Below are positions 31,128 to 50,334 of a stretch of DNA of 64,000 nt, one piece after another. The notes under the pieces were generated by a model. That model was not told the origin of the DNA and searched no databases. It saw only the letters and a list, made by a program, of their open reading frames with translations. Numbering within the stretch: the first letter of the stretch is position 1; each line of letters opens with the position of its first letter. The position numbers and the translations under genes are program-made. Location of the stretch: positions 256,001 to 320,000 of the forward strand of contig CAVSGP010000004.1 in the NCBI GenBank assembly GCA_963727505.1, read 5' to 3'. The DNA comes from an uncultured Trueperaceae bacterium. Its GTDB lineage: Bacteria; Deinococcota; Deinococci; Deinococcales; Trueperaceae.

Positions 31128-34100
31128 CTACTTCGTCTTCTTGCCCGTCTTCCTCTTCGTCGCTCGCTTCGTCGAATCCTTCGGTCCGCGCTTCGCAGTC
31201 CGCTTCGAGGCGGGTTGCGGCGTTGCGGAACCGTCGCCCCCCGCGGCCGCCGCACGCTCCGCCAGACCCTCGCGCAGCCGGTCGAAGCGGTAGCCGCTGG
31301 CACGCTCGACGCGCTCGAGCTCGCGCCGAAGCGTCCCGAGCACCGTCTTGGCGGCGCCGGAGGCGGCCGCGAGCCCCCGCGCACCGGCACACAGCAGCCG
31401 GAAGCGCTCCTGCCGGAACCAGCGCTCACCCCCGTGCTCGTGCACGTCGAGGAACTCCTGCGCCGCCGCGTCGCCTGTGATGGCGTCGAGCAGCGACGCC
31501 ACCTCGATCTCGGCCCCGTGGGGCGCCAGCCGCGTGAGCAGCGCAGGCAGTCGGGCGGCCGCCCAGGGATCGGCCACACCGGACGACGCCAGCGCACCCT
31601 CCAGGGCGCCCTGCAACCGCAGCGAGGCGTAGAGTTGCTCGCCTCCCTCCAGCGCGCCCAACGCCAGCGCTGCCCGCAGCGCAGCGGCGACGCCGAGGCC
31701 GCTCGCCTCCGCCGCCTCTACGCCGGCGCGATCCAGCGCCGTCGCTGCGGCGTCGTCGATCACGACCGCCACGTCCTTGGCCGCGCTGCCGGAAGCGCCT
31801 GTTTCCGAAGCACCGCCTTCCGAAGCATCGACCTCGGAAGCACCGATCTCGGAAGCACCTGTGCCGCCGGTGCGCGGGGACGCGCTCTCCTCCACCGGGC
31901 GGGCCGCCTGTCGTTGGCCGCCGGCGCCGCGCTTCCGAGGCGTGCCCCGCAGGGCCGTCGTCAGCGCCTCGACCGCGGCGAGATCGCCCGCGGTGTCCTC
32001 GGTTACCGCTCCGCTCGCATCGGAAGCGGCGGATTCGGCAGCGGCGGATTCGGCAGCGGTGGGCTTGGCACCGGCGAGCTTGTCACCGGCCCGCCCTTCG
32101 GCGGTGTGGGCCGCGCCAGCGTCCGTCGCCGGCCCCGGCTTCGACACGGCCGCAGCGGTCGAGCCCGGCGCGGCGCGGCGGCGGCGCGAGGCCGGCTCCG
32201 GGCCCCCGCCTCGTGCCGGCACGACCTCGGCGTGCTCGCGCGCGGCACGAACGAAGGCGAGGGCGGAGCCGGCCACGTCCCCGCCGTCGCGGGCCGCGTC
32301 CAGCAGGGCCAGGAAGGTCCGGCGGGGCCGGCGCAGCGTCCAATCGAGGCGGGCCTGCCTCCAGCTCGGGGATGCCGGCACCGGCGAGCTGGTCGTGAAG
32401 CCCGGCGTAGCTGCCGTCGACGTCGTGCACCTCGCGGACCTCGGTGAAGGCGCGCGCCTGGAAGCCGTCGAGGTCGAAGCGCAATCCCTGCCGGACCAGA
32501 TCGTCGGAGCGATGGAGGTAGTCGAGGCCGGTGAGCCGCTCGCGGAGGATGGTGAAGCGGCGCTCGCCACCCGCGACGCCGAGGGCCTCGTGGAGTGGCT
32601 CGGTGCGCGTCCCACCGTCCGACCAGGGCTCGGCGAAGAAGACGCTGCGGTGGATGGTGACCTCGGCGCGGGCGTAGCGGTTGTTGAACAGCACCAGCGA
32701 GGCTCCGCCATCGGCCCGGTTGCTGTAGGCATAGACGTCCTCGCGTACCGTGCCGTCGTCCCCGTAAGCGTCGAACAGCCGGAAGGTCTCGGCCGGAGCG
32801 AACTGCGCGCGGCGATGCAACAGCGGTGCGATCTCGCGCCGGTGGCGCGCGACCATGCGTGCGTCGGGCTCCTCCTCGAACGTGGGCGCCCGGTACTCCA
32901 TGCCGTACTTCTCGCGAAATCCCTCGACCTGTCCGTGACCGAACATCGGCAGGCCGGGCAGGGTGGCCATCATCACCGCCGCACCGAAGTACTTGTCACC
33001 GTCGCCGAACTGCGCGATGGCGGTCTCCTCGTCGGGGTTGTTCATGAAGTTGACGAAGCGCCCGAGGATGCGCGGGTCGAACGCCAGCACGTTCTTCATC
33101 AGCAGACGGTAGTCGGCGTTCTCCTCCCGCTTCAACATGTTCATGAAGGCGCTGTTGTAGACCCGGTGCATGCCGAGGGTCCGAACGAAGTACCCCTCCA
33201 TCATCCAGAAGGCCTCGGCAAGGAGCAGCGTGCCGGGAGCCTCCTGCGCGACCCGGTCCACCACCTCCCGCCAGAACTCGGTCGGGAGGGCGCGCTCGAA
33301 CTCCTCGGCGCTCATGCCTCCGTAGGCGCTGCGCGACGGGATGGCGCCGCCGTGGCCGGGAGGCGGGTACCAGAGCCGCTGGACGTGGCGCTTGGCCAAC
33401 GTCATGGCGGCATCGAAGCGGATGATCGGCACCGTCCGCGCGACATGCAGGATGGCCTGGATGACCGCCTCGCGGACCTCCGACTTCAGGTAGTCGAGCT
33501 GCGCGGTGTCGTTCCATGGCATGGTCGTGCCGTCGTTGCCGTGGTAGAGGTAGCGCGCCTCGCCGCTCGAGCGCTCGACACGCTTGAACACCACGGCCGC
33601 GTCGCTGTCGTCCCAGTAGTGGTCCTCGATCATCACGGCCATCGACGGGTGCGACGAGAGGTCGGGGCCGTCGAAACGGTAGCCCGGGTAGGGCGGGTGG
33701 TCGAGCTGGATGAACCAGTCGGGGTGCTCCGCCACCCACCGGCCGTCGATGCCCACATGGTTGGGCACCATGTCGCCGGCCAGGCGGATGCCGCGGCGGG
33801 CGGCCCGCCGCTCGAGCTCGCGCAGTCCGGCCTCGCCGCCGAGGTCGTCGGCCACCACGTAGTCGTACAGGGCGTAGGCGCTGGCAAGCGCGTCGGCCTG
33901 ACCGCGACGTTGCTTGATGCGCCGTGACGCCTCGCTGCGCTCCCACAGGCCGATCAGCCACAGGCCGTTGAACCCGCGCTCCGCCAGCTCGTCGAGGGCC
34001 TCATCGGGAATCTGGTCCAGACGGCGGACCTCCCTGCCGAAGCGACGCTCCAACTGCGCCAGCCACACGTAGGTGCTCTTGGCGACCAACACCACGCGGG

Positions 34101-35019
34101 GCATCCAGTCGCTGTCGGGGCTGAACGCCTCGATCTCGCCGGGGCGGGCCAGGGCCTCGGCGTCGAGCACCGGAGCCGGCCCGGGCCCAACCGGGCCACG
34201 GCTGCGCTCCTCCCGGAGGGCGTCGGTCGAACGCAACAGCCGCGCCAACAGCCCGGCATAGCGCTCTCCCAACACGGCCCCCCACAGCTCCTCGGCCACG
34301 CGCAGCTGCCCCTCGAGCGAGGTGGGGCTCCGGCGCTGCGGCGCCCACAGCAAGTCGATCAGCGACATGCCCCCCGCCCACGTCGTGCCTTGCTCGCGCA
34401 GGCCTTCCTCCAACAACGGGAGCGCCCGCTCGTAGGCGCTCGAGCGGCGCAAGGGAGCATCATCGAAGAGCTCCTGCAGGCGCTCCAGCGCCGGATTGGC
34501 GTTGGCCAGCCAGAGCAACAGCGCCTCCTCCAGCACGACCAGCCGGTTGGACGTTCCTTCGGTCGTTCCCGCCAGGTAGCGCTGCGCATCCTCCCAGCCA
34601 TCGGCAACGGCAGGGGCCGGGAAGCGCTCGACGAACGCGCGCTGCATGCCACCCAGAGCGCCGTCGCCGATCGCGCCCTCCAAGCGACCCAGCGCGTCCT
34701 CGACCACGTTCCGGCCCGATCGCTCGGAGGCGGTCTGCAGCACAGCGTGCATCAGCTCGTGCAGCAGCGCCGCGCCGTACAGCTCGCTGCCAGCGATCGA
34801 CAACTCGGGGTAGCGCCCGGCCTCGCGCACGTCGTTCATCCGGGCCGCCAGGCGGTAGGCGGTGGCGAGATCACCGAACATCACACGGCCACGCAGGCCG
34901 AACAACTCACCCTCGATGCGATAGCGGCGCCGTGCATCGAGCGCCACATGAAGATGGCGCGCGCGGTGCGGCTGCAAGGCGGCACACTCGGGGCGGCGGT
35001 TGTCGTTGCATGTGCTCAC
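31128..35019 (-). pseudogene. Large GH13 alpha-amylase family gene with one apparent frameshift near 32358 (about 1296 aa if repaired)
   Basis: DMVPNH, IIRFDAAM, LLAEAFW, FMNNPDE in the frame of ORF 32083..35250; protein-like sequence continues in the frame of ORF 31128..32732 from QARLDW onward; span 3892 nt = 3n+1. Confidence 0.75.
31791..31860. repeat. Degenerate 15-bp tandem repeat (GASE-x units) in the GH13 C-terminal region
   Basis: GAAGC recurs every 15 bp, encoding GASEI/GASEV/DASEG/GASET; a second AESAA repeat lies at about 32021-32060. Confidence 0.7.
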
Positions 35020-35277
35020 GGTCTCGCCCTCCCGGGGGCCTCGAACACCAGGCACGCCGCTCCGGCCCCAGGACGCGGCACTGCCACGCGAGGCCACTCC
35101 GACCCCGCGCACTTCCTCGTAGTCCCCCGGAGCGTAGCACGCGCCCCGCGCGCTGCACGTCCCCCGAGGGACGTGAGTAGCGTCACCGACGTCTTTGCTG
35201 TGAGCGTTCCATTGCCGGGAGGCCGGCTGCGCGGGTACAATCCCATTCATCGGAAGCCCGCAACGGGAGAGGAGCGG

Positions 35278-36141
35278 ATCGCCACGTCACGCCAGCAGGG
35301 AGCCAACCGCACCGTTCGGCGTGCGAGCGCGGCGAGACCGCTCGTCGCCGCCTTGCTCGCCTCCCTCCTCCTGAGCGGCTGCACCGGCGATCTCAACACG
35401 CCCGGCGAGGCGCTCCGGATCCTCGGCACCGGGATCCCCCCCGCATACCTCGGGCAAGCCTACGACCAGCCCATCCAGGCCGTGGGCGGCCTGCGCCCCT
35501 TCGAGTTCGCGCTCGCCGACGGAGCGTTGCCGCCCGGCATCCAGTTGCAGGGTGGCACGCTCCGCGGCGTGCCTAGTAAGACCGGTCAGTATACGTTCAC
35601 CTTGCAGGTCACCGACGCGAACCTTTCCAAGACCGTCCAGAAGTACACGCTCTCGGTGGCCGAACTCCCTCCTCCCAGTCTGACCCTCAACGTTCCCAAC
35701 ACCGAGATCGACCACCGCATCACGCTGCGGGGGTACCTGCACAACGGCCGGGGCTTCCAGGGGCTCCGTACGCAGATCCGGTGGGACCCGCAACGCTTCG
35801 AACTCGTGCAGGGCAGCGTGCGCGCCAGTCGTCAGGGTCTGGCGCTGCTCCACCAGGCGGCCAGCGGGCAGCTCCAGGTGGCACTGGCTCCGCTCGGCAA
35901 CAATCTCGACGGCGACGTCGGCCTCTTCCAGTTCGACCTGCAACCCACGGCAGGCGCGAGCTACCTGAAGCTCGACGCGCAGACGGAGTTCATGTCCGTA
36001 AGGGGCCACGACTTCGCCCAGACGAGCGAGGGACGCCAGCCGCCGCCCACCGGTTCCGGGACGACGGGCACCGGAACGACGGATGGCATCCCGACGGACA
36101 CGAAGCCCTCCTCCCCTGGCAACGGCGGTGGCACGCAGTGA
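35278..36141 (+). CDS. Lipoprotein with Ig-like (He_PIG-type) domain and cohesin-like domain; start codon uncertain
   Basis: Lipobox LSGC (Cys 35380); GALPPGIQL..GTLRGVP..GQYTFTLQVTDA; GLRTQIRWDPQRFELV...GQLQVA...LFQFDL; Thr/Gly-rich tail. Confidence 0.72.
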   Translation: MATSRQQGANRTVRRASAARPLVAALLASLLLSGCTGDLNTPGEALRILGTGIPPAYLGQAYDQPIQAVGGLRPFEFALADGALPPGIQLQGGTLRGVPSKTGQYTFTLQVTDANLSKTVQKYTLSVAELPPPSLTLNVPNTEIDHRITLRGYLHNGRGFQGLRTQIRWDPQRFELVQGSVRASRQGLALLHQAASGQLQVALAPLGNNLDGDVGLFQFDLQPTAGASYLKLDAQTEFMSVRGHDFAQTSEGRQPPPTGSGTTGTGTTDGIPTDTKPSSPGNGGGTQ

Positions 36142-36734
36142 ACGCGCGCTCCCAGGCCCCAGGACGCCACGGCCTGCCAGCATTCGCGCGCCGCCTGGCG
36201 AGCGCGCTGCTCGCCGCGGCGCTGTTCGGCGTGCCGGCCAGCGCGACCACCTATCTGCACATGACGCCGCAGGCGATGCTCGCCAAGGCGAGCCTGGTGT
36301 TCGTCGGTACGGTCGCCGAGGTTCGCGTCACCAACGACGTCGGCACGCCCTGGACGCACGTGCGCTTCAACGTCGACACTGCCCTCGCCGGCGTGCCGGT
36401 CGGCGCCGACGGCAAGGCACGACAGCCCGTCGAGCTCGCCTTCCTCGGAGGCACCGTTCCCGGAGGCCCGGCACTCACCGTGAGCGGCATGCCGCAGTTC
36501 GAGTCCGGAGAGAAGGTGCTGGTGTTCGCCTACGACCAGACCTACGCCTCCCCCATCGTGGGCTTCCGTCAGGGCCTGTGGCGCATCACGCCCGCGGGTC
36601 TGCGCGACGAGGACGGCCAATTCCTGTCGGTGTCAGACACCGGAAAGCTGGTCGCGGGCGGATCGGGCGCCCCGCTCGACAGCATCGTCCAGGCCATCCG
36701 CGACGGACTCGCGAGTTCGGGCGGAACGCCGTGA
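36138..36734 (+). CDS. Secreted beta-rich hypothetical protein resembling matrixin-associated N-terminal domains
   Basis: Signal peptide ending ASA; ASLVFVGTV..FNVD..FLGG..GMPQFESGEKVLVF; GTGA overlaps with both neighbours. Confidence 0.75.
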   Translation: MNARSQAPGRHGLPAFARRLASALLAAALFGVPASATTYLHMTPQAMLAKASLVFVGTVAEVRVTNDVGTPWTHVRFNVDTALAGVPVGADGKARQPVELAFLGGTVPGGPALTVSGMPQFESGEKVLVFAYDQTYASPIVGFRQGLWRITPAGLRDEDGQFLSVSDTGKLVAGGSGAPLDSIVQAIRDGLASSGGTP

Positions 36735-37651
36735 GGGGCGCTCACCGTCGACGCCGGACCGCCCTGGCGGCGCTCCTGTTCCTGCTGGTCGCCGCCCCCG
36801 CTACGGCCCAGGACGGCTCGTCGCTGCCGCTGCCCATCGCTCCGCCCACGACGCCTCCGCCTGCCGCGACGCAGGCCCCCACAGCGACCACCGACGCCGC
36901 CTCCGCGCCCACCAGGACGGTCACCGTCGACGCCGGTGGCGGTCCCGCCAGCCTGCAAGACGACCTGAAGGCGGCGATCGCCGCCTGGACGAAGGCCGCA
37001 CCCGACCTCGCGAGGCTCACCATCGACCCCGCGGCGGCCTCCAGCGTCGGCTACGCCGCGCCCGCCCGACTCGGTCCCGAAACGCTGTCGCTCGACCTCC
37101 GCGTTCCCGGCCGCGACGGCGTCGAGGTCCACATCGCCTCCGGCGCGCCCGCCGAGCACCCCATGGTCCTGCTCCACGAGGTCGGCGTCCTGCTGGGCCT
37201 CCCCGAGGGCGGCAGCGGGGTCATGGCGTTCGCGGTCCCCGCCAGTGACGAGCCGACCGCGCCGACCGCGGGTGACGTGCAGACGCTGCGGGCCCAGCGC
37301 AGCTACGCCCGCGAGGACCTCAACCACGACGGCACGATCGACTTCTACGATCTGGTGCTGTTCGGCCAGGCATACGGGGCGCAAGGCGTGAACCTTCCGG
37401 CGGACTTCAACGGCGACGGACGCGTCGACCGGCAGGACCTGTCGATGCTGGAGAAGGCCTATACCTTCGCGCCCCCGTCGAAGACGGGCCCAGGCGAGAA
37501 CGCACCCGCCCCGGCTCCCTCACCGACCACGCCTTCGGCGCCCCCTGCCAGCAGCGAGACGCCTGCGCCGCCCGCGGCGCCCGGCTCCTCCGACACGCCG
37601 AATGGCGGCGCCACCGGCGGCAAGGGGTCGACCCCAGCGGGCGCCCCCTGA
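36731..37651 (+). CDS. Secreted protein with degenerate metzincin-like domain and type I dockerin-like duplicated Ca-binding repeat
   Basis: Signal peptide; AAIAAW; HEVGVLLGLPE plus Met-turn-like GVM; DLNHDGTIDFYDL and DFNGDGRVDRQDL; Pro/Thr linkers. Confidence 0.78.
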   Translation: MRGAHRRRRTALAALLFLLVAAPATAQDGSSLPLPIAPPTTPPPAATQAPTATTDAASAPTRTVTVDAGGGPASLQDDLKAAIAAWTKAAPDLARLTIDPAAASSVGYAAPARLGPETLSLDLRVPGRDGVEVHIASGAPAEHPMVLLHEVGVLLGLPEGGSGVMAFAVPASDEPTAPTAGDVQTLRAQRSYAREDLNHDGTIDFYDLVLFGQAYGAQGVNLPADFNGDGRVDRQDLSMLEKAYTFAPPSKTGPGENAPAPAPSPTTPSAPPASSETPAPPAAPGSSDTPNGGATGGKGSTPAGAP

Positions 37652-37987: not shown

Positions 37988-39901
37988 TCAGAGCGCCTGG
38001 CCTGCGCCGGTCTTCAACTCCGGTACGTAGAGCACGGCCAGCTCCTGCTCGCCACGAACCAGGGTCACCGTACCGTTACCGACCGGGGCGATCAGGTAGT
38101 CCGTGAACGAGCCCAGCACCTGACCGGGCAACATGGCGACCAGGCTCTCCTGCGTGTCCCGGCTCCGCCCGCGGTACTGACGGACGGTGATCTTCTGCCC
38201 GCCCAGATCGATCGTGAGCGGCTCACCGGTGAGCTGGTAGACGTTGGCGTCGGCGCCGGGAACGCGTTCGATGACATCGGAGAGATCGCTGGCCTCGACC
38301 GTCATGGCATCGACGAAGCGCTGGACCAGACCGAGCACGGCGTTGTCGTCGAGTGTCACGCCGGCCGCGCGGGCGGCCCCTCGCAGCAGACCCTCCACGG
38401 CCTGGCGCCGGTTGGGAGCGCGGGCGCTGACGTTGTTGGCCCGAGCGACGGCGCGCGCGACGAGGTCCTGCGGGTCGCCCTGCACCGAGCTCGCCAGCAC
38501 CTTGAGCACTGTCAGCAGGTCATCGCGCCGGCGATCGGCCAGCACGAACAGCACGACCAGCGCTTCGGCCAGCCTCACCGCCAGCGAGCGTCCCTCGTCG
38601 CGATAGCGGAAGTGGACGTAATCGCCCTCGCTGAACACGCTCAACTTGCTGCGGCCGAGGTCGAGCACCAGCCGGCCCTCGAGCGCCACCTCCTGGTCCC
38701 CGACGAACAGCGAGCGGGACGGTCCCGTTCCCATGATCGCGATCTCGTGGTCCGCCAGCGTGAAGCGCACCGGACCGACCAGCCGAACCGTCAGGGCCGC
38801 AGCGCCCGGGGGCACGGCGTCCCACCGGAGAGCGGGGTTCACGGCGAACAGCACGCCGCCTTCGAGCTGCGGGCCGCTCGCCCTGCCGCCCACCGAAGTC
38901 GGCAGGTAGTCGGCCAGCCGCTCGAAGAAGGCGTGGACCAGATCGCTGAACTGCAGCACGTCGCGCTGGAACAGCTGCCTCTGGTTGCGCTCGAAGGCGA
39001 GCGTCTCGGCCAGGCGCTTCTCCAGCTCCTTACGGTGCGCGCCGCGTTGCCCGTCGGGAAGACGCTCCTTGGCGATCTCCTGGATCGCCAGCCGGAGTTG
39101 CTTGCTGCTCGGCCCCCGGTGTTCGATCAGCGACAACGCACCGGCGTAGGGGTCTTGCGCGACCGCCCCGGCAACCTGACGCACGAACGCCAGCGCGTCC
39201 GCCTCGCGCACCTCCAGATCGGCGAAGGAGCCTCCCCGCTTGCCGAGCGTCATGACGGTGTTGACCAGCTCGCGGACGAGCTCGGCAAGGGCGTCCAGGT
39301 CCGACAGCGACACCAGCGGATCGTTGAACTCCGGGATCGGCTCGTACACCTGGAAGCCGCGCAGGTTCACGTCCTGCGCGAAGGTCTTCTTCGCGCTGTT
39401 GCGCTGCAGGTTCTGCAACGTCGCGTACACCAGCCGGGCCGTCTGACGCTCCCGTTCGGCACGCCAACCGGCTGCCACCTTGAGCACGAACTCGTCGAGC
39501 TGCTCCCACCAAACACGCTGCGCCAGACGTTGGAGGACCGCCTGCTCCTCGCGCTCCTCCGGTCGGTCGGCCGGCGTGGCGATCGGCGCCACGTCGTGGT
39601 CGTCGAGCTCGACGTCGGACTCGTCGCCAAGCACCAGCGCATCGATGTCGGGGGCACGCTGAGCCGAGCCTTGCGCCCCGTCGGAGATGAGTTTGAGGCT
39701 CTGCGACACGGCCTCGAGCCGCGCCCGCTCCTCCTGGCTGAGCGATGTCATCTGGCGGCTGAGGTGCCCGTAGAGCTCCCACATGCCGTTGACGCCGCCT
39801 TGTACCTGCCGGGTGGCGCGATACTCCGACACCTTGTACTCCAGCAGCTCGAGTGCGACGCTCTCCAACTTCAACATACGGTTTCCAGTATACGGTTGCA
39901 T
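37988..39901 (-). CDS. Hypothetical protein (about 630 aa)
   Basis: Long ORF with normal globular composition and strand continuity with lysK and phhB; no family recognised. Confidence 0.8.
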   Translation of the reverse strand: MQPYTGNRMLKLESVALELLEYKVSEYRATRQVQGGVNGMWELYGHLSRQMTSLSQEERARLEAVSQSLKLISDGAQGSAQRAPDIDALVLGDESDVELDDHDVAPIATPADRPEEREEQAVLQRLAQRVWWEQLDEFVLKVAAGWRAERERQTARLVYATLQNLQRNSAKKTFAQDVNLRGFQVYEPIPEFNDPLVSLSDLDALAELVRELVNTVMTLGKRGGSFADLEVREADALAFVRQVAGAVAQDPYAGALSLIEHRGPSSKQLRLAIQEIAKERLPDGQRGAHRKELEKRLAETLAFERNQRQLFQRDVLQFSDLVHAFFERLADYLPTSVGGRASGPQLEGGVLFAVNPALRWDAVPPGAAALTVRLVGPVRFTLADHEIAIMGTGPSRSLFVGDQEVALEGRLVLDLGRSKLSVFSEGDYVHFRYRDEGRSLAVRLAEALVVLFVLADRRRDDLLTVLKVLASSVQGDPQDLVARAVARANNVSARAPNRRQAVEGLLRGAARAAGVTLDDNAVLGLVQRFVDAMTVEASDLSDVIERVPGADANVYQLTGEPLTIDLGGQKITVRQYRGRSRDTQESLVAMLPGQVLGSFTDYLIAPVGNGTVTLVRGEQELAVLYVPELKTGAGQAL

Positions 39902-39972: not shown

Positions 39973-41073
39973 TTACGCGGGTACGCCCGCTGGCGCGTGC
40001 GCCTCACCGGCGAGATGGGTGAACACCGCGCGCAGCACCCCCACCGCACGCGCGTACTCGGTCAGGTCGATGCGTTCCTCGGGCGTGTGATCGAGCGACG
40101 CGTCGCCGGGACCGTACGCCACCATCGGAACCGCCCAGTGGGGGGCGACGACGTTCATGTCCGAGGTCCCCGTCTTCACCTTGGCCCGCGGACGGGCTCC
40201 TGCCCCGCGGATGGCGACCCGGAAGGCGCGAGCCAGCGACGAGTCCTTCGGGCCACGATAGGCCTGCTCGGGCCCGCTGATGGAGAGCCGCACGCCGTGG
40301 GGCAGGGCCAACGCCTGCAGGCTCTCGCTGAGCGCCCGCGGCGGCCAGCGTGGCGGCAGGCGGAAACCCAGCACCGCCTCGCAGCGCTGGGTGAGTCCAT
40401 CGTTGTCCGAGCGCAGCGATTGCAGCGAGACCTGCAGCGCGTCGAACCTCCCCTCCACACCGTGGTTGTCCTCTTGCACGAAAGCCCGAACGGTCGCGAA
40501 GCCGGTCACCGCCAGCTCGGCGGCGGTCGGCTCGTCACGGGAGGAATGGCTGTTGGGTCGTTCGGCACGCAGGCGCACCAATAACCTGCCCTTGTACCCC
40601 AGGGTGTAGGCGTCCCAGCCGCTGGGCTCGCCGATGATCACCAGGTTCGGGGTCTCGTAGGCTTCCACGGCGTAGCGTGCCCCCTTGCTGCTGGGTGCCT
40701 CCTCCTCGACCGCGCCGATCAGGCGCAGCCGGAGCGCGCCCTTGAGCGACGACGGCAGCCCAGCGACCGCCGCCATCGCGGCGCAGAAGCTCCCCTTGGC
40801 GTCCACCGCGCCCCGGCCGTGCAGGACGCCGTCTTCCCGACGCACCCGGATCTCGCCCGGAACCGTATCGATGTGGCCCAGCACGGTCACGGCCAGGTCG
40901 CCGTGCCCCCACACGCCGACCGCGTTGCCGGCCTCGTCGACGAACGCTTCGTCGGCGAATCCCGCCATGGCCTCCACCAGCAACGCGGCGACGGCGGCCT
41001 CCTGCCCTGAAGGGCTGGGTGTGGCCACCGCGCGCTCCAACAGATCGGCCGGGTCGAGCAACCCTTCGCTCAC
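39973..41073 (-). CDS. lysK: [LysW]-lysine hydrolase (M20 family)
   Basis: SPSGQE, LGHIDTVPG, GRGAVDAKG, VEEE, GEPSG, GTSDMN, DHTPEE; lys operon context. Confidence 0.92.
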   Translation of the reverse strand: MSEGLLDPADLLERAVATPSPSGQEAAVAALLVEAMAGFADEAFVDEAGNAVGVWGHGDLAVTVLGHIDTVPGEIRVRREDGVLHGRGAVDAKGSFCAAMAAVAGLPSSLKGALRLRLIGAVEEEAPSSKGARYAVEAYETPNLVIIGEPSGWDAYTLGYKGRLLVRLRAERPNSHSSRDEPTAAELAVTGFATVRAFVQEDNHGVEGRFDALQVSLQSLRSDNDGLTQRCEAVLGFRLPPRWPPRALSESLQALALPHGVRLSISGPEQAYRGPKDSSLARAFRVAIRGAGARPRAKVKTGTSDMNVVAPHWAVPMVAYGPGDASLDHTPEERIDLTEYARAVGVLRAVFTHLAGEAHAPAGVPA

Positions 41074-42266
41074 GACGCCAGCACGCGCGCCGTCCGGGCC
41101 AGCACCTCGTCGATCTGCGCTTCTTCGATCACCAGCGGAGGCAGGAAGCGGATGACCGTGGCGCCCCCGGCGATGGTGAGCACGCCCTCTCGCTTGAGCG
41201 CAGCGATGAGCGGAGCGGCCTTCTCCTTGAGCTCGACGCCGACCATCAGACCCCGCCCGCGCACCTCCCGCACGCGGTCGCCCCCGATGCGGCGCAGGCC
41301 CTCCATGAGGCGCTCCCCCATCGCTTGCGCGTGCTCCATGAGTCCGCGCTCCTCGATCTCCTCGAGCACCGCCAGGCCGGCGGCGCTCGCAAGCGGGTTG
41401 CCACCGAAGGTGGTGCCGTGGCCTCCCTTGGGCATGCTCGCCGCCACGGCGTCGGTCATGAGCAACGCGCCGATCGGCACGCCACCGGCGAGACCCTTGG
41501 CCAGCGTGACCATATCCGGATCCACGCCGTACGCTTCGCTGGCGAGGAAGGTACCCGTGCGTCCCACGCCGCACTGGATCTCGTCGAATACCAGCATCGC
41601 GCCGGCGGCGCTCGCCACCTCCCTGGCGGCGCGCAGGAAGCTCTCGTCGGCAGGGTGGATGCCCCCTTCGCCCTGCAGCGGCTCGAGCAGCACCGCCGCC
41701 ACGTCCTCGTTCACCGCTGCGCGGAGCTCGTCGACGTCGTTGTAGCGGATGAACTCCACGTCCATGGCATAGGGACCGAAAGGCTCGCGATACTTCGGTT
41801 CCCAGGTCATCGGGAGCACACCTAGCGTCCGCCCGGAGAAGCCGCGCTTGGCGGCAACGAAGCGACTCCGACCCGTGGCGGCGCGCGCCCACTTCAACGC
41901 CGCCTCGTTGGCCTCGCTGCCCGAGTTGCACAGGAACACTCGGTTCAGGGGCGCCGGGACGTGCCGGAACAGGCGATCGACGAACGCGGTGCGGGCGTCG
42001 TTGCCGAGGTTCTGCGGACACACGATGAGTCGCTGGGCCTGCTCGGCCACGGCGCGCGCCAGCCTGGGGTTGGCGTGCCCGACGCTGGCCACCGCGATGC
42101 CGGCCATGCAATCGAGGTACTCGTTGCCGTCCAGGTCGTACAGGAGCGCGCCATCGCCACGCACGAACACCGTGTCCGGTTCCCAGAGACCCGAACGATG
42201 CACGGCGTCGCGCGCAAGGAGCTCGGCACTGGTGATGCCCCTACTGCGTTCCTCGATGTCGGTCAT
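41070..42266 (-). CDS. lysJ: [LysW]-aminoadipate semialdehyde transaminase
   Basis: Class III aminotransferase: NSGSEANE, EPLQGEGG, FDEIQCG, TLAKG, TTFGGNP. Confidence 0.92.
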   Translation of the reverse strand: MTDIEERSRGITSAELLARDAVHRSGLWEPDTVFVRGDGALLYDLDGNEYLDCMAGIAVASVGHANPRLARAVAEQAQRLIVCPQNLGNDARTAFVDRLFRHVPAPLNRVFLCNSGSEANEAALKWARAATGRSRFVAAKRGFSGRTLGVLPMTWEPKYREPFGPYAMDVEFIRYNDVDELRAAVNEDVAAVLLEPLQGEGGIHPADESFLRAAREVASAAGAMLVFDEIQCGVGRTGTFLASEAYGVDPDMVTLAKGLAGGVPIGALLMTDAVAASMPKGGHGTTFGGNPLASAAGLAVLEEIEERGLMEHAQAMGERLMEGLRRIGGDRVREVRGRGLMVGVELKEKAAPLIAALKREGVLTIAGGATVIRFLPPLVIEEAQIDEVLARTARVLAS

Positions 42267-42329
42267 GCGATCCCTTCCTTCCTGGGCGTTGCCGCCATGG
42301 CGGGCGCCGGGCCTGTCGGTCGGACATGT

Positions 42330-43160
42330 CTACGCAACGACGGTGCCCTCGCCCCGCAGGGCGCGCTCGATCGGTTCGGGTACGCGGGCGTCGGCGAACA
42401 CGACGCGCCCCACCCCTCCGGCCACCGCCTCCGCGGCTCCGAGAACCTTCTTCTTCATCCTGTCCTGCGCGATCTCCAAGTACTCCTCGACGCGGGCGGC
42501 GGGGATCTCACGGATCAGGCTGGCCTCGTCCGGGAACGCGGCGAGCAGCCCCGGCACGTTGGAGAGCAGCACCAGCGCCTCGGCCCCGAGCGCGGCCGCG
42601 ACGGCGGCGGCCGCCCTGTCGCCGTCGACGTTCACGGCGACCCCTTCGAAGCTGGCGCCGGGCGGCGTCAGCACCGGCAGGTAGCCGTGGTCGAGAAGCA
42701 GCCGGAGGAGTCCGTCGTTGACGCGCTCCACGGTACCGGTGTGGTCGCCCCGCAAGATGACGGTCTTGCCCTCCTCCACGCTCCGGACGCTCTTCTTGTG
42801 CTTTCCCTCGAACACGCGGCCGTCGAGGCCCGAGAGCCCGACGGCGTTCACGCCGCGTCGCTGCAGTCTCTCGACCAGGCCCTTGTTCATCTTGCCGCAG
42901 TAGACCATCTCGAAGATCTCGAGCGTCTCCCGATCGGTGAAGCGGCTGGTGAAGCCGCTCGGACTCGTCACGAAGCGGGGCGGGTGTCCCAGCGCCTCGG
43001 CCACCCGGTTGGTCTCCGCGCTACCACCGTGCACCAGCAGCAGTCGACGCCCCGCGCTCTGCAGGGCAGCGATATCGTCGCATACGGCGTCGTAGTCGAT
43101 GCCTTCGGACCCGCCCACCTTCACGACCACCAGGCCGCCCATGGCCGCTGCCCCGCTCAC
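42330..43160 (-). CDS. lysZ: [LysW]-aminoadipate kinase
   Basis: VVKVGGS, VHGGS, SRFTD, NVDGDRAAA, RMKKK. Confidence 0.92.
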   Translation of the reverse strand: MSGAAAMGGLVVVKVGGSEGIDYDAVCDDIAALQSAGRRLLLVHGGSAETNRVAEALGHPPRFVTSPSGFTSRFTDRETLEIFEMVYCGKMNKGLVERLQRRGVNAVGLSGLDGRVFEGKHKKSVRSVEEGKTVILRGDHTGTVERVNDGLLRLLLDHGYLPVLTPPGASFEGVAVNVDGDRAAAAVAAALGAEALVLLSNVPGLLAAFPDEASLIREIPAARVEEYLEIAQDRMKKKVLGAAEAVAGGVGRVVFADARVPEPIERALRGEGTVVA

Positions 43161-43587
43161 GCCGCACCCCGCTCACGGATCATGAATCGCTCCCGGCGTT
43201 CGCCCTGCAGCGGGCCGAACCCGAAGCGGCGGTAGAGGTCGTGCGCATCGCGCGTGAAGAGCGTCCAGTAGCGCACCGTCGAGAGCGCCTCGTAGCCGGT
43301 CACGCACTCCAGCAGGAAGCTCCCCAGTCCGCGTCCGCGCTCCGCGTCCAGCACGAACACGTCGGCGAGGTAAGCGAAGGTCAGCGCATCCGTGACGACG
43401 CGAGCGAAGCCCACCTGGCGTTCGCCCAGATAGAGACCGAAAGGCAGGCTGTGGTCGACCGCTACGCGCAGCTCCTCGAGGCTGCGACCGCGGGCCCAGT
43501 AGCTGTTGGTGAGGAACTCCTGCATCATCGCAAGGTCGAGCCGATCGCGGTCGGTGTCGACCACGGCGTCACCCCGGCGCCATACGC

Positions 43588-43591
<4 letters not shown>
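43157..43591 (-). CDS. GNAT family N-acetyltransferase
   Basis: QVGFARVVTD..FAYLADVFV..RGRGLG..TRDAHDLYRRFGF. Confidence 0.9.
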
Positions 43592-45968
<2,377 letters not shown>

Positions 45969-46835
45969 TCAGACCGGCACGACCTGCTCGGCGGCGTAGC
46001 GCACCACCCGTACCGGGATGTCGACCCCGGTGGTGGAGACCGAGTTCCGGAACTCCATGGTGTGGTTCACCTCGACGACCAGCAGGCCACGCTCGGATTC
46101 GATGACGTCGACCGCCAGCACGCCCCCGCCGACCGCTCGGGCGGCGGCGGACGCCACCTCGACCAGGTCGTCGGTGAGAGGGCAGTTGCTGGCGCTACCG
46201 CCACGTGCGGTATTGGTGATCCAGTGCTCGCTCGAGCGGTAGATGGCGGCGATCACCTCGTCGCCGACCACGAAGGCGCGGATGTCGCGCCCGGGCTTGC
46301 GCACGAACTCCTGGACGTAGAAGACCTTGTGCTGCGGGCCCCCCAGCACCTCCTTGTGCTCGAGCACGGCCTCGACCGCATCTCGATCCGAGAGCTTGGA
46401 CACCATGCGCCCCCAGCTCCCGACCACCGGCTTCAGCACCACCGGGTAGCCGAAGCGCTCGCACAGCTCCAGCACCGCATCGGTCGTGAACGCCACGCCG
46501 GTGCGCGGGGCGGGAACGCCGGCGGCGGCGAGCGCAGCGTTGGTGGCGAGCTTGTCGCCGCAGGTCTCGATCACCTCCGGCCCGTTGATGACCCGCGCCC
46601 CCGCCGCCGTGTACAGGCGGCTGAAGGCGAGCCCCCGTGTCTGCGACAGACAACGTTCCATCACGACATCGAACGGCGAGCGCTCGAAGCGGCTGAAGTC
46701 CACCGCCTGATGGGGCGCGTAGACCTGCTCGAACGGCACGCCACCGCGCTCGAACGCCTCGAAGAGCATGCGCTCCTCGGGACGCAGGCGGTCGTAGACC
46801 ACGGCGATCCGGGGGTGGGCGGCAACCTCGCTCAA
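45969..46835 (-). CDS. lysX: Alpha-aminoadipate--LysW ligase
   Basis: [36 protein letters not shown]. Confidence 0.95.
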
Positions 46836-46838
46836 GGC

Positions 46839-47003
46839 CTACTCTCCCCAGTCCTCGTCCTCCTCGGGGGCCGGCTCGAAGCGCAACGGATCGAGCCCGA
46901 CGACTTCGAGCTCGGCGCCTTCGTCGGTGACCACCAGCTCGCCGAGGGTGAGATTCTCCGGGTCCACATCCACGCGACCGTAGGGGGTGTCGATCGTCTG
47001 CAT
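46839..47003 (-). CDS. lysW: Amino-group carrier protein LysW (54 aa)
   Basis: Acidic small protein ending EDWGE; AAGGAG RBS; adjacent to lysX. Confidence 0.95.
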   Translation of the reverse strand: MQTIDTPYGRVDVDPENLTLGELVVTDEGAELEVVGLDPLRFEPAPEEDEDWGE

Positions 47004-47118
47004 GCCTGGTTCTCCTTCTGGAGCGGCGTGGGAGCGCCGCGGGGTTGGGGCCCGTCTGCCTCGAAGCAGCCCACGTCCGCCTCGGGCCCGCAGCGGACGT
47101 GCGCGGGATGGATGATTC

Positions 47119-47657
47119 TCAGCCGGCACGCTCCGGGGCGGAGGCGTCCTCGCCCGGGAAGCGGCCGTGCTTCTTGAAGAACGCCAGCACCGAGCCTTCG
47201 CTCAGGACCTCCTGCAGGAACTCGGGTACCGGCGGCAGCGAAAGGCTCTCCTCCACACCGTCCTCGCGCAGCCGAACGAGGCGCCCGTGCGCCATCTCCA
47301 GCCTCACCCCGTCGCCGTCGCGCAGCGCATCGACGAGGTCGGGGGCGGCGAAGGCGGGGATGCCGAGGTTGAGGAGGTTGCGGTAGTGGATACGTGCGAA
47401 CGAACGCGCAACGATCGCGCCGACCCCCAGGCGCTTGAGCGCCTGCGGGGCGTACTCGCGGCTCGAGCCCAGACCCCAGTTGCGCCCCCCCACCAGCACG
47501 TCACCGGGCGCCACCTCGGCGGCGAACTCCGGCCGCAGGTGCGCGAAGGCGTAGCGATGGAACACCTCCTCACCGACCATGAGGGGAGCGTACTTGCCCG
47601 GGAGGATGTCGTCGGTATTCACGGCATCGCCGAAGCGCCACACGCGGTTGCCTGCGC

Positions 47658-47661
<4 letters not shown>
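47119..47661 (-). CDS. lysU: Homoaconitase small subunit
   Basis: FGDAVNTDDILPGKY, WGLGSSREYA, SFARIHYRN. Confidence 0.88.

Positions 47662-50334
<2,673 letters not shown>

Follow-up and report, generated by a model that had tools for sequence, protein, structure and literature searches.

What would a cohesin and a dockerin be doing in the envelope of a member of the Deinococcota? Such pairs, known mostly from Firmicutes, serve there as connectors for enzyme display, and the question is raised by a three-gene operon (35278-37651, + strand) in a 64,000-nucleotide stretch of DNA from an uncultured Trueperaceae bacterium, hereafter the window. The initial annotation had proposed a non-cellulosomal cohesin-dockerin surface complex in which gene 1 is a membrane-anchored scaffold that captures gene 3, with gene 2 as a third subunit. 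We consider it rather probable that the three proteins form one lipid-anchored, Ca2+-locked and non-catalytic envelope complex. Of the three outcomes named beforehand as speaking against the proposal (another fold for the end of gene 1, no cohesin-dockerin pairing, no co-conservation of the genes), none was encountered, the pairing being judged on a predicted complex.

The three + strand reading frames (gene 1, 35278..36141; gene 2, 36138..36734; gene 3, 36731..37651) are translationally coupled as proposed, through GTGA sequences at 36138-36141 and 36731-36734 in which stop and start overlap. A sigma-70-like promoter site, TTGCCG-N18-TACAAT (35212..35241, + strand), lies upstream; one such site was found against 0.1 expected in shuffles, and a similar one occurs in 7 of 10 aligned sequences of the genus. 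Position 35236, given earlier as the start of gene 1, turns out to be the -10 box of this promoter-like site and holds no start codon. No canonical start that gene 1 could use lies downstream of it, and translation likely begins from a non-canonical ATC at 35278, after GGAGAGGAG, a start read from the sequence. Two TTG codons were ruled out as starts, that at 35212 because it falls inside the -35 box and that at 35353 because no n-region would remain. Within the family, 34 of 37 genomes have the three genes side by side (synteny read by eye); two of the three exceptions are in fragmented assemblies, and in the third, gene 1 lies about 195 kb away. The genome (3.26 Mb, 97% complete) yields a single cohesin-family match and a single dockerin match; being the sole one, and lying in an arrangement kept in 34 of 37 genomes, the dockerin match is not due to chance. 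The neighbourhood gives no functional clue, as nothing among the flanking genes is conserved across families, and an NCBIfam search returned no match above cut-off.

Gene 1 encodes a predicted lipoprotein made of an Ig domain, a cohesin-fold domain and a Thr/Gly/Pro tail. Its signal peptide is followed by the lipobox LSGC (35371..35382, + strand), as had been noted, whose Cys (35380) is invariant in 82 of 82 aligned homologues, and lipidation is thus predicted. The Ig-like repeat described earlier is instead a single He_PIG/cadherin-like domain (35401..35664, + strand; PF05345, E 4.2e-10), which matches the cadherin-like domains of SraP (Z 11.4-11.5, rmsd 2.2-2.3, 85-87 residues aligned). The segment GLRTQIRWDPQRFELV...GQLQVA...LFQFDL, cited from this gene, was located. 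The C-terminal domain (35665..36042, + strand) had been suspected of being a cohesin-type beta-sandwich, and it does model as one, a nine-strand jelly-roll of cohesin topology with a pLDDT of 94.9. In a structural search of 48,161 chains, the top 12 matches were all cohesins (Z 15.7-12.2), the best non-cohesin reaching 11.9; the first, 2vo8 (Z 15.7, rmsd 2.6, 124 aligned), is also the top Foldseek match (E 5e-7). The Pfam check that had been suggested failed, PF00963 matching neither gene 1 nor any other protein of the genome, and among 40 gene 1 homologues it gave one match, at E 0.13. Searching the PDB with genes 1 and 2, as single sequences and as profiles, gave no significant match to a cohesin or a TIMP; the gene 1 family profile had the cohesin 2vo8 as its best match (E 0.076). 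As the Pfam Cohesin model misses gene 1, the cohesin assignment rests on structure, and cohesin identity between families is only 15-23%. The WDP-type pattern that had been taken as typical of cohesin-like domains is present in the family of the window, but it is seen only there.

Gene 3 combines a signal peptide, a Pro/Thr linker, a metzincin-like domain, a dockerin and a Pro/Ser tail. A dockerin is understood here as two Ca-loop/helix repeats with Asp/Asn at positions 1, 3, 5, 9 and 12. The duplicated repeats (37316..37468, + strand), running from DLNHDGTIDFYDL at 37316 to DFNGDGRVDRQDL ending at 37441, were rightly identified as such, scoring 29.2 bits against the Dockerin_1 cut-off (PF00404) of 22.9 and resembling 2ozn_B (Z 7.4, rmsd 2.1, 54 aligned). 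The dockerin was detected in 62 of 67 gene 3 homologues, and Asp1 and Asp12 are invariant in both loops (67/67). Its assignment to type I is not established: the repeats are asymmetric, with positions 10/11 conserved as hydrophobic and mostly F-Y in repeat 1, and variable and polar, D/R-A/Q, in repeat 2. The symmetric recognition residues of a dual binding mode are accordingly missing, and the modelled complex uses mainly helix 1, the predicted cohesin-binding helix. This cohesin-dockerin model has an ipSAE of 0.88, versus 0.02 for the best of 3 controls, on a scale whose mark is reached by 116 of 157 solved pairs and by 2 of 215 mismatched ones; its runs agree in 100% of contacts and the partners have a pLDDT of at least 86. 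The predicted contacts involve F205, Y206, L208, V209 and F211-G216 on the dockerin and, on the cohesin, the strands carrying the conserved R34 (29/40) and D72 (36/40; Ala in the window protein). As a set, the interface positions are no more conserved than the rest of the cohesin (mean entropy 2.20 vs 2.31, p 0.20). The multimer check came out in favour of the predicted pair, and, together with natural cohesin-dockerin fusions, it supports a putative capture of gene 3 by an anchored gene 1. Both the cohesin-dockerin and the TIMP-MMP-like models may, however, owe their scores to the solved complexes that they resemble.

The middle of gene 3 (36914..37285, + strand) had been overlooked: it is a metzincin that lacks two of its three zinc histidines. 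It has the snapalysin/MMP fold (profile match to 1c7k, E 1.7e-4), and a model of the fused homologue P0131, with its active-site helix and Met-turn, superposes on 4hx3 (Z 12.4, rmsd 2.7, 121 aligned). The motif HExxHxxGxx(H/D) is degraded to HEVGVLLGLPE (37175-37207, + strand), where His2 is replaced by Val and His3 by Glu, and both histidines are absent from 67/67 homologues as well as from 32/32 gene 2-gene 3 fusions. In Trueperaceae, His1 survives in 52 of 67 proteins, the catalytic Glu in 64 and the Met-turn (Met at 37223, + strand, in the window) in 51, and the third-ligand position is a Glu in 40. Proteins of the Deinococcus type have lost His1 and the Met-turn too, and all 23 sequences compared from three families keep the catalytic Glu.

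Gene 2 encodes a secreted protein whose probable NTR/N-TIMP fold had likewise escaped the initial annotation, and for which the Atlas lead was TIMP/NtA/NTR. In a model of a fused homologue, its domain resembles N-TIMP-3 (Z 9.3, rmsd 3.2, 118 aligned), the PCOLCE1 NTR (Z 9.2) and agrin NtA (8.6). Residue 23 of this model aligns with residue 1 of TIMP-3, and several zymogen alignments begin at residues 19-24, against the zymogen pro-parts; from these ranges, we infer that the N-terminus of gene 2 would sit in the protease cleft. The predicted mature protein starts with Thr-Thr-Tyr (36246, + strand), Thr coming first in 42 of 46 sequences and Thr/Ser second in 41 of 46. It has no Cys, and hence neither the Cys1-X-Cys3 nor the disulfides of TIMPs. 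The same Thr is found in NTR relatives beside intact matrixins, and of 21 related NTR genes outside the phylum, 17 are followed by the gene for such an enzyme. The view of gene 2 as a third subunit is strengthened by 32 natural gene 2-gene 3 fusions, which keep long flexible linkers, by the model of one of them (pLDDT 90.4, pTM 0.85), where the NTR packs on the pseudo-protease, and by a presence/absence profile identical to that of the dead protease.

A genome-wide search for the cohesin family, covering 121 Deinococcota genomes, found the gene in all of them, with one match each, and the cohesin tree follows families. The NTR and the pseudo-protease co-occur in the same 72 genomes and are both missing from the other 49; this joint occurrence and the adjacency within the family agree with the expected co-conservation. 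Where they are missing, the dockerin is fused to the cohesin in 17 of 18 genomes inspected (one contig is cut). Such fusions are present in 16 of the 17 f3/f4 genomes inspected (one contig cut) and in 11 of 12 named Thermus-family loci (one frameshifted); they drop Ca-loop 1 and keep helix 1. A second fusion arose independently in G154, sister to the three-gene G108 within f2. It places about 215 low-complexity residues between cohesin and dockerin, versus only about 10 between cohesin and helix 1 in Thermus. Thus, the loss of the NTR and dead protease along with cohesin-dockerin fusion occurred twice independently.

The closest known systems are the non-cellulosomal pairs of Clostridium perfringens (cohesins 2vo8 and 2w1n/2jh2, complex 2ozn), which provide the best gene 1 matches (Z 15.7 and 14.2) at only 13-16% identity. 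They likewise have a single cohesin and no cellulase, but they connect active glycoside hydrolases in a monoderm, whereas the Deinococcota cohesin is carried by an Ig lipoprotein in a diderm phylum, its cargo lacks zinc ligands and its gene is single-copy in all genomes searched. The proposed non-cellulosomal role is borne out, as the three proteins have no GH domain and the multi-cohesin scaffoldin with several dockerin enzymes that defines a cellulosome is absent. The cohesin 2xdh of Archaeoglobus fulgidus is also close (Z 13.3, rmsd 2.6, 119 aligned) and reportedly shares a chain with a dockerin, with no known carbohydrate role; this system is archaeal, we know of no NTR or metzincin reported in it, and the fused dockerin of Deinococcota has lost Ca-loop 1. 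On the other side of the operon, gene 2 shares with N-TIMP-3 (3cki; PF00965/PF01759) the NTR OB-fold and the aligned mature N-terminus, but has Thr1 in place of Cys1, while gene 3 shares with snapalysin (MEROPS M7, 1c7k/4hx3) the minimal metzincin fold, Glu, Gly and Met-turn. Unlike TIMP-MMP and snapalysin, gene 3 lacks His2 and His3, and the pair is co-encoded, sometimes fused, and dockerin-tethered. Gene order and NTR family are shared with bacterial two-gene cassettes from metagenomes (L073-L093), in which the NTR accompanies an intact matrixin; in a profile comparison, the dead protease is matched to the intact enzyme of L089 (hhalign probability 93.7, E 1.8e-7). Their proteases retain HELGHxxGLxH in 17 of 21 loci, most of those that are full-length carry a hydrophobic tail at their end, and no cohesin or dockerin was detected in these loci.

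How could these parts work together? In the complex that we favour, domain identities, zinc-ligand loss, co-conservation and natural fusions are observed, while both interfaces are modelled. The gene 1 cohesin would grip helix 1 of the gene 3 dockerin, and the TIMP-like N-terminus of gene 2 would plug the zinc-less cleft of the dead protease. The Ig, cohesin and dockerin core is presumably the portion under phylum-wide selection. Judging by conservation, it may act as a stalk or adaptor holding a conserved envelope partner, probably via the Ig domain, as this is the best-conserved part of the core. The head, made of NTR and dead protease, would go back to an inherited pair of protease and inhibitor that was retained as a structural cap and lost twice. 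Since the socket gene is present in every genome of the Deinococcus-Thermus group that was searched, we regard the predicted complex as a likely core component of the cell envelope, with no enzymatic role. Going further, we tentatively suggest a single-copy complex that defines the phylum and combines two borrowed clasps. One would be a cohesin-dockerin pair, kept even when cargo-free and closing on itself in Thermus; the other would be a TIMP-metalloprotease pair that has become a structural latch without zinc, where the catalytic Glu alone would be retained to hold the inhibitor N-terminus.

Gene 2 could instead have remained a functional TIMP-like inhibitor, stored on the dead protease, tethered by the cohesin-dockerin pair and switching to foreign or misactivated metzincins entering the envelope. 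TIMPs inhibit via residues 1-2 (PMC7916773), and the conserved Thr start, shared with relatives beside intact matrixins, and the flexible linkers of the fusions fit such a depot. This reading nonetheless seems unlikely, as it leaves unexplained the 49 of 121 genomes that keep the cohesin gene, with a fused dockerin where inspected, after losing both NTR and pseudo-protease. Defence genes, moreover, usually spread patchily, unlike this single-copy, vertically inherited gene. Less likely still is a calcium or mechanical sensor, whose clasp would open at low Ca2+ or under envelope strain, thereby freeing the head or making the face of the cohesin accessible to a partner in signalling or remodelling. 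Ca2+ is indeed needed for dockerin folding (PMC12484212), and the self-closed, cargo-free form that arose twice would suit an auto-capped switch. However, the operon has no conserved neighbour that encodes a regulator, a membrane transducer or a hydrolase, and the absence of one Ca-loop from the fusions suggests that the unit is closed constitutively.

The fused forms, which carry both halves, might also pair between neighbours and chain the lipoproteins into a lattice, and in G154 the two halves are far apart. We find this highly improbable: in the three-gene form, a single socket and a single plug are found on different chains, so that chaining is impossible, and the Thermus spacing is very short. 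That gene 3 is an active protease with a His/Glu ligand set, held at the cell like a clostridial dockerin enzyme, is scarcely credible, even though most Trueperaceae proteins still have His1, the catalytic Glu and the Met-turn, and a Glu often occupies the third-ligand position. This Glu is not general, His2 is absent throughout, Deinococcus-type proteins have also lost His1 and the Met-turn, and the single dockerin match in the genome means that there is no set of exchangeable enzymes.

If the favoured complex is real, a cohesin-dockerin system serves core envelope architecture and not enzyme display; its single-copy, cargo-independent retention in the whole set of genomes points to a task of another and fundamental kind in an envelope that is unusual and has been much studied. 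The pairing of a TIMP-fold protein with a matrixin in bacteria, and the decay of such a pair to a complex around a pseudo-enzyme, would bear on the origin of TIMP-type inhibition, and divergent, partly thermophilic cohesin-dockerin pairs could supply orthogonal parts for designer scaffolds. A 2009 survey of non-cellulosomal cohesins and dockerins may already include these proteins. The claim that nothing had been described in Deinococcota stands only in part. Supplementary annotation tables already label a dockerin (DR1404) and an Ig protein, very likely the genes of this operon, as single copies in D. geothermalis, D. radiodurans and both T. thermophilus strains, and score them as gained in the Deinococcus-Thermus ancestor. 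These rows give labels only: they name no cohesin, NTR or metzincin and propose no complex, and do not present the proteins as a cohesin-dockerin module.

By gene order, the putative orthologues are DR1407-DR1404 in D. radiodurans and TTHA0131/TT_C1863 in T. thermophilus. Hypothetical proteins of two models amenable to genetics thus receive folds and predicted partners, which makes the proposal testable at once. DR_1364 and DR_0940, accessory lipoproteins of the secretin in D. radiodurans, differ from them by length and tag and are not the same proteins. In T. thermophilus, a Tn-seq study that could not resolve essential genes classed TT_C1863 as 'Intermediate' (mean Z -0.47), outside the least-permissive fifth. 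In D. radiodurans, DR_1407 is listed in the envelope proteome of the wild type, whereas DR_1406 is listed for the supernatant of a tamB mutant with a leaky envelope (PMC5382914).

The three genes at 35278..36141, 36138..36734 and 36731..37651 (all on the forward strand; genes 1 to 3) form a variant of the non-cellulosomal cohesin-dockerin system that is universal in our phylum sample and carries a TIMP-fold/metzincin head turned to a new use. The observation is real and richer than the initial annotation had it. The three reading frames, the two GTGA overlaps, the lipobox and the two Ca-loop repeats were all found where it had placed them in the window, while the left edge it gave, 35236, had to be abandoned, as this coordinate falls in the -10 box. 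A usable ATG, GTG or TTG for gene 1 is absent downstream of the promoter (window 35212-35280), and the conserved GAGGAG is followed by the codon ATC in four sequences of the genus, and by GTC and ACC in one sequence each. Judging from these sequences, gene 1 likely starts at the non-canonical ATC at 35278.

Pfam recognizes He_PIG in gene 1 (E 4.2e-10) and Dockerin_1, above its cut-off, in gene 3, in agreement with the earlier reading of the two Ca-loop/helix repeats as a dockerin; it gave zero matches on gene 2. The AlphaFold2 model of gene 1, built from 82 sequences (pLDDT 94.9), shows two beta-sandwiches. The first, an Ig domain in which most of the invariant residues of the alignment sit, matches the cadherin-like domains of SraP. 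The second (residues 96-221), already suspected to be a cohesin, is almost undetected by sequence methods, and its model matches cohesins first in both Foldseek and structural comparison: cohesins fill the top 12 places among 48,161 solved chains, the Clostridium perfringens module 2vo8 being the best match (Z 15.7, rmsd 2.6, 124 aligned, 13% identity) and again the first in Foldseek, and the top non-cohesin match has a Z of 11.9. In the dockerin, Asp1 and Asp12 are present in both repeats of 67/67 homologues. We are highly confident that gene 1 carries a cohesin and gene 3 a dockerin.

When the two were modelled together, ipSAE reached 0.88, 0.88 and 0.86, with contacts in 100% agreement between runs and partner pLDDT of at least 86. 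The ipSAE mark used is reached by 116 of 157 solved pairs and by 2 of 215 mismatched ones, and since similar complexes are already solved, passing it indicates likeness, not affinity. The proposed capture of gene 3 by gene 1 thus stands on a controlled model (0.88 vs 0.02 for the best of three controls) that likeness to solved complexes may help, and we consider this binding very likely. The modelled contacts lie chiefly at dockerin helix 1 and at the cohesin strands with R34 and position 72 (Asp in 36/40); conservation of the interface above the rest of the cohesin was not significant overall (p 0.20). Because positions 10/11 are mostly Phe-Tyr in repeat 1 and variable in repeat 2, the dockerin likely binds in one way only, with helix 1.

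Between its signal peptide and dockerin, gene 3 has an extra domain that the initial annotation lacked. The profile of this domain matches snapalysin (E 1.7e-4) and MMPs, and its motif HEVGVLLGLPE is followed by a Met-turn. Zinc ligands His2 and His3 are missing in 67/67 aligned homologues; the Glu is present in 64/67, and when 23 sequences from three families are aligned it is one of three residues that never vary. In Deinococcus-type proteins, His1 and the Met-turn are gone too. For gene 2, the nearest named Atlas clusters are TIMP/NtA/NTR (0.89 and below), a lead only. Natural gene2-gene3 fusions occur at 4 genome loci and in 28 database proteins, partly redundant. One of these proteins, P0131 (429 residues), was modelled with pLDDT 90.4 and pTM 0.85 despite a linker of roughly 50 residues, which implies that its gene 2 and gene 3 parts pack confidently. 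Its model matches snapalysin (Z 12.4), a C. perfringens dockerin (Z 7.4) and N-TIMP-3 (Z 9.3, model 23-182 aligned to chain 1-121). As the alignments of the ADAM17, astacin, meprin and profragilysin precursors start at model residues 19-24, opposite their pro-parts, Thr1 of mature gene 2 would lie near the protease cleft, a placement read off alignment ranges and not coordinates. TIMPs are described in PMC7916773 as binding through residues 1-2. We consider binding between genes 2 and 3 very likely.

We count the folds (by model), the ligand loss, the co-occurrence and the fusions as observed, and the two interfaces as modelled. After export, gene 1 would be lipid-anchored; Ca2+ would fold the gene 3 dockerin, whose helix 1 would dock onto the cohesin, and the free N-terminus of gene 2 would latch in the zinc-less cleft of gene 3, pairing with its retained Glu. 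The core (Ig, cohesin and dockerin) is kept without cargo, and therefore enzyme display is not its general purpose. We favour over all rivals a structural stalk or adaptor, which probably holds a conserved envelope partner. That the complex is an inhibitor depot seems unlikely to us, and that it is a sensor rather more so; a polymer is very improbable, and an active protease the least probable reading of all.

The homologues bear the label Trueperaceae in their sources. Single-protein queries of 61 relatives found gene 1 in 60, gene 2 in 46 and gene 3 in 52. The operon withstood the synteny check, the three genes lying side by side in 34 of 37 family genomes. One clear break is seen in this sample, in genome G034, where gene 1 is ~195 kb away from the gene2-gene3 pair (G034:C2:1546698-1547848 and 1741555-1742259). 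The window's own genome (3.26 Mb, 97% complete) has a single dockerin match and one apiece for the cohesin, NTR and protease family profiles. Across the phylum sample, the cohesin profile matches 121/121 genomes, once each, and the NTR and pseudo-protease profiles match an identical 72/121: 4/4 in family f1 plus the own genome, 67/68 in f2 (Deinococcaceae), 0/6 in f3 and 0/42 in f4 (Thermaceae), f2 and f4 being assigned via named relatives. The three genes are located together in 70/72, the remaining cases being at contig ends, as judged by eye.

In 16 of the 17 genomes inspected among the 48 of f3 and f4, dockerin helix 1 and repeat 2 are fused after the cohesin; in the other, the contig is cut after helix 1. 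Named Thermus-family loci, which may overlap these genomes, show the same fusion in 11/12, one being frameshifted. The sole f2 genome without NTR, G154, has its own cohesin-dockerin fusion, Ca-loop 1 again missing, and is sister to the three-gene genome G108 inside f2 (support 98/85; f2 100/99). Because of this nesting, head loss with dockerin fusion occurred on two separate occasions; kin not being independent, the losses are two events, not 49.

Outside the phylum, an intact HELGHxxGLxH matrixin lies directly downstream of the NTR gene in 17 of 21 loci (L073-L093), found with four NTR homologues as one narrow query and not independent; two of the other four stop just past the NTR gene. A cohesin or dockerin was detected in none of the 21. 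The dead-protease profile matches one of these intact matrixins (probability 93.7), and this match and the gene pairs suggest that genes 2 and 3 likely descend from a protease-inhibitor cassette. In the tree, the unfused genes 2 and 3 of the window fall within a clade of mostly fused forms. Two or more fusions or fissions are needed to explain this, so the lineage may be a re-split. The NTR family counts 7,509 representatives (E up to 0.001) and no common Pfam family. In one metagenome lineage its members lie ahead of intact matrixins, most of which have a hydrophobic C-terminal tail. At L091:5377-8115, a non-Deinococcota locus, a long matrixin-like ORF after the NTR gene has the degenerate motif QQLGFGIGLG, possibly a separate instance of a dead protease.

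Among the openly accessible papers listed for cohesin, dockerin, Deinococcus, Thermus, the locus tags and bacterial TIMP, we found no description of a cohesin/NTR/metzincin module. PMC1978522 lists an Ig-like cell-surface protein that is single-copy in four genomes and was scored as a gain in the ancestor of the phylum, and the D. geothermalis homologue carries the same wording. Orthology to the D. radiodurans and T. thermophilus tags was judged by order, length and neighbours. DR1407 (365 aa), DR1406 (157 aa), DR1405 and DR1404 (dockerin) are tabulated in PMC1274311, as is TTC1863 between a dCTP deaminase and a macro-domain gene, the neighbours seen at our Thermus loci. PMC5382914 reports DR_1407 from the envelope of the wild type and DR_1406 from the supernatant of the tamB mutant; in PMC13140390, TT_C1863 is classed as Intermediate and as a persistent gene of Thermaceae. 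The gene 3 orthologue of D. radiodurans is annotated in two pieces, DR1405/DR1404 (PMC1274311), and one gene 1 record, P0356, is a fragment of only 92 aa; both may be sequencing errors, of the kind that PMC5382914 demonstrated at the tamB locus.

On the opposite strand, a divergent alpha-amylase-like ORF with an Arg/Pro-rich end (32083-35250) overlaps the ORF 31128-32732 in another frame, possibly through a frameshift. A 637-aa protein (37988-39901, reverse strand; cluster 21) is conserved next to the operon at 12 loci of the family. Further on, at 39973-49062 of the same strand, the translations resemble what we take to be a Deinococcus-Thermus LysW-type lysine/arginine biosynthesis cluster.
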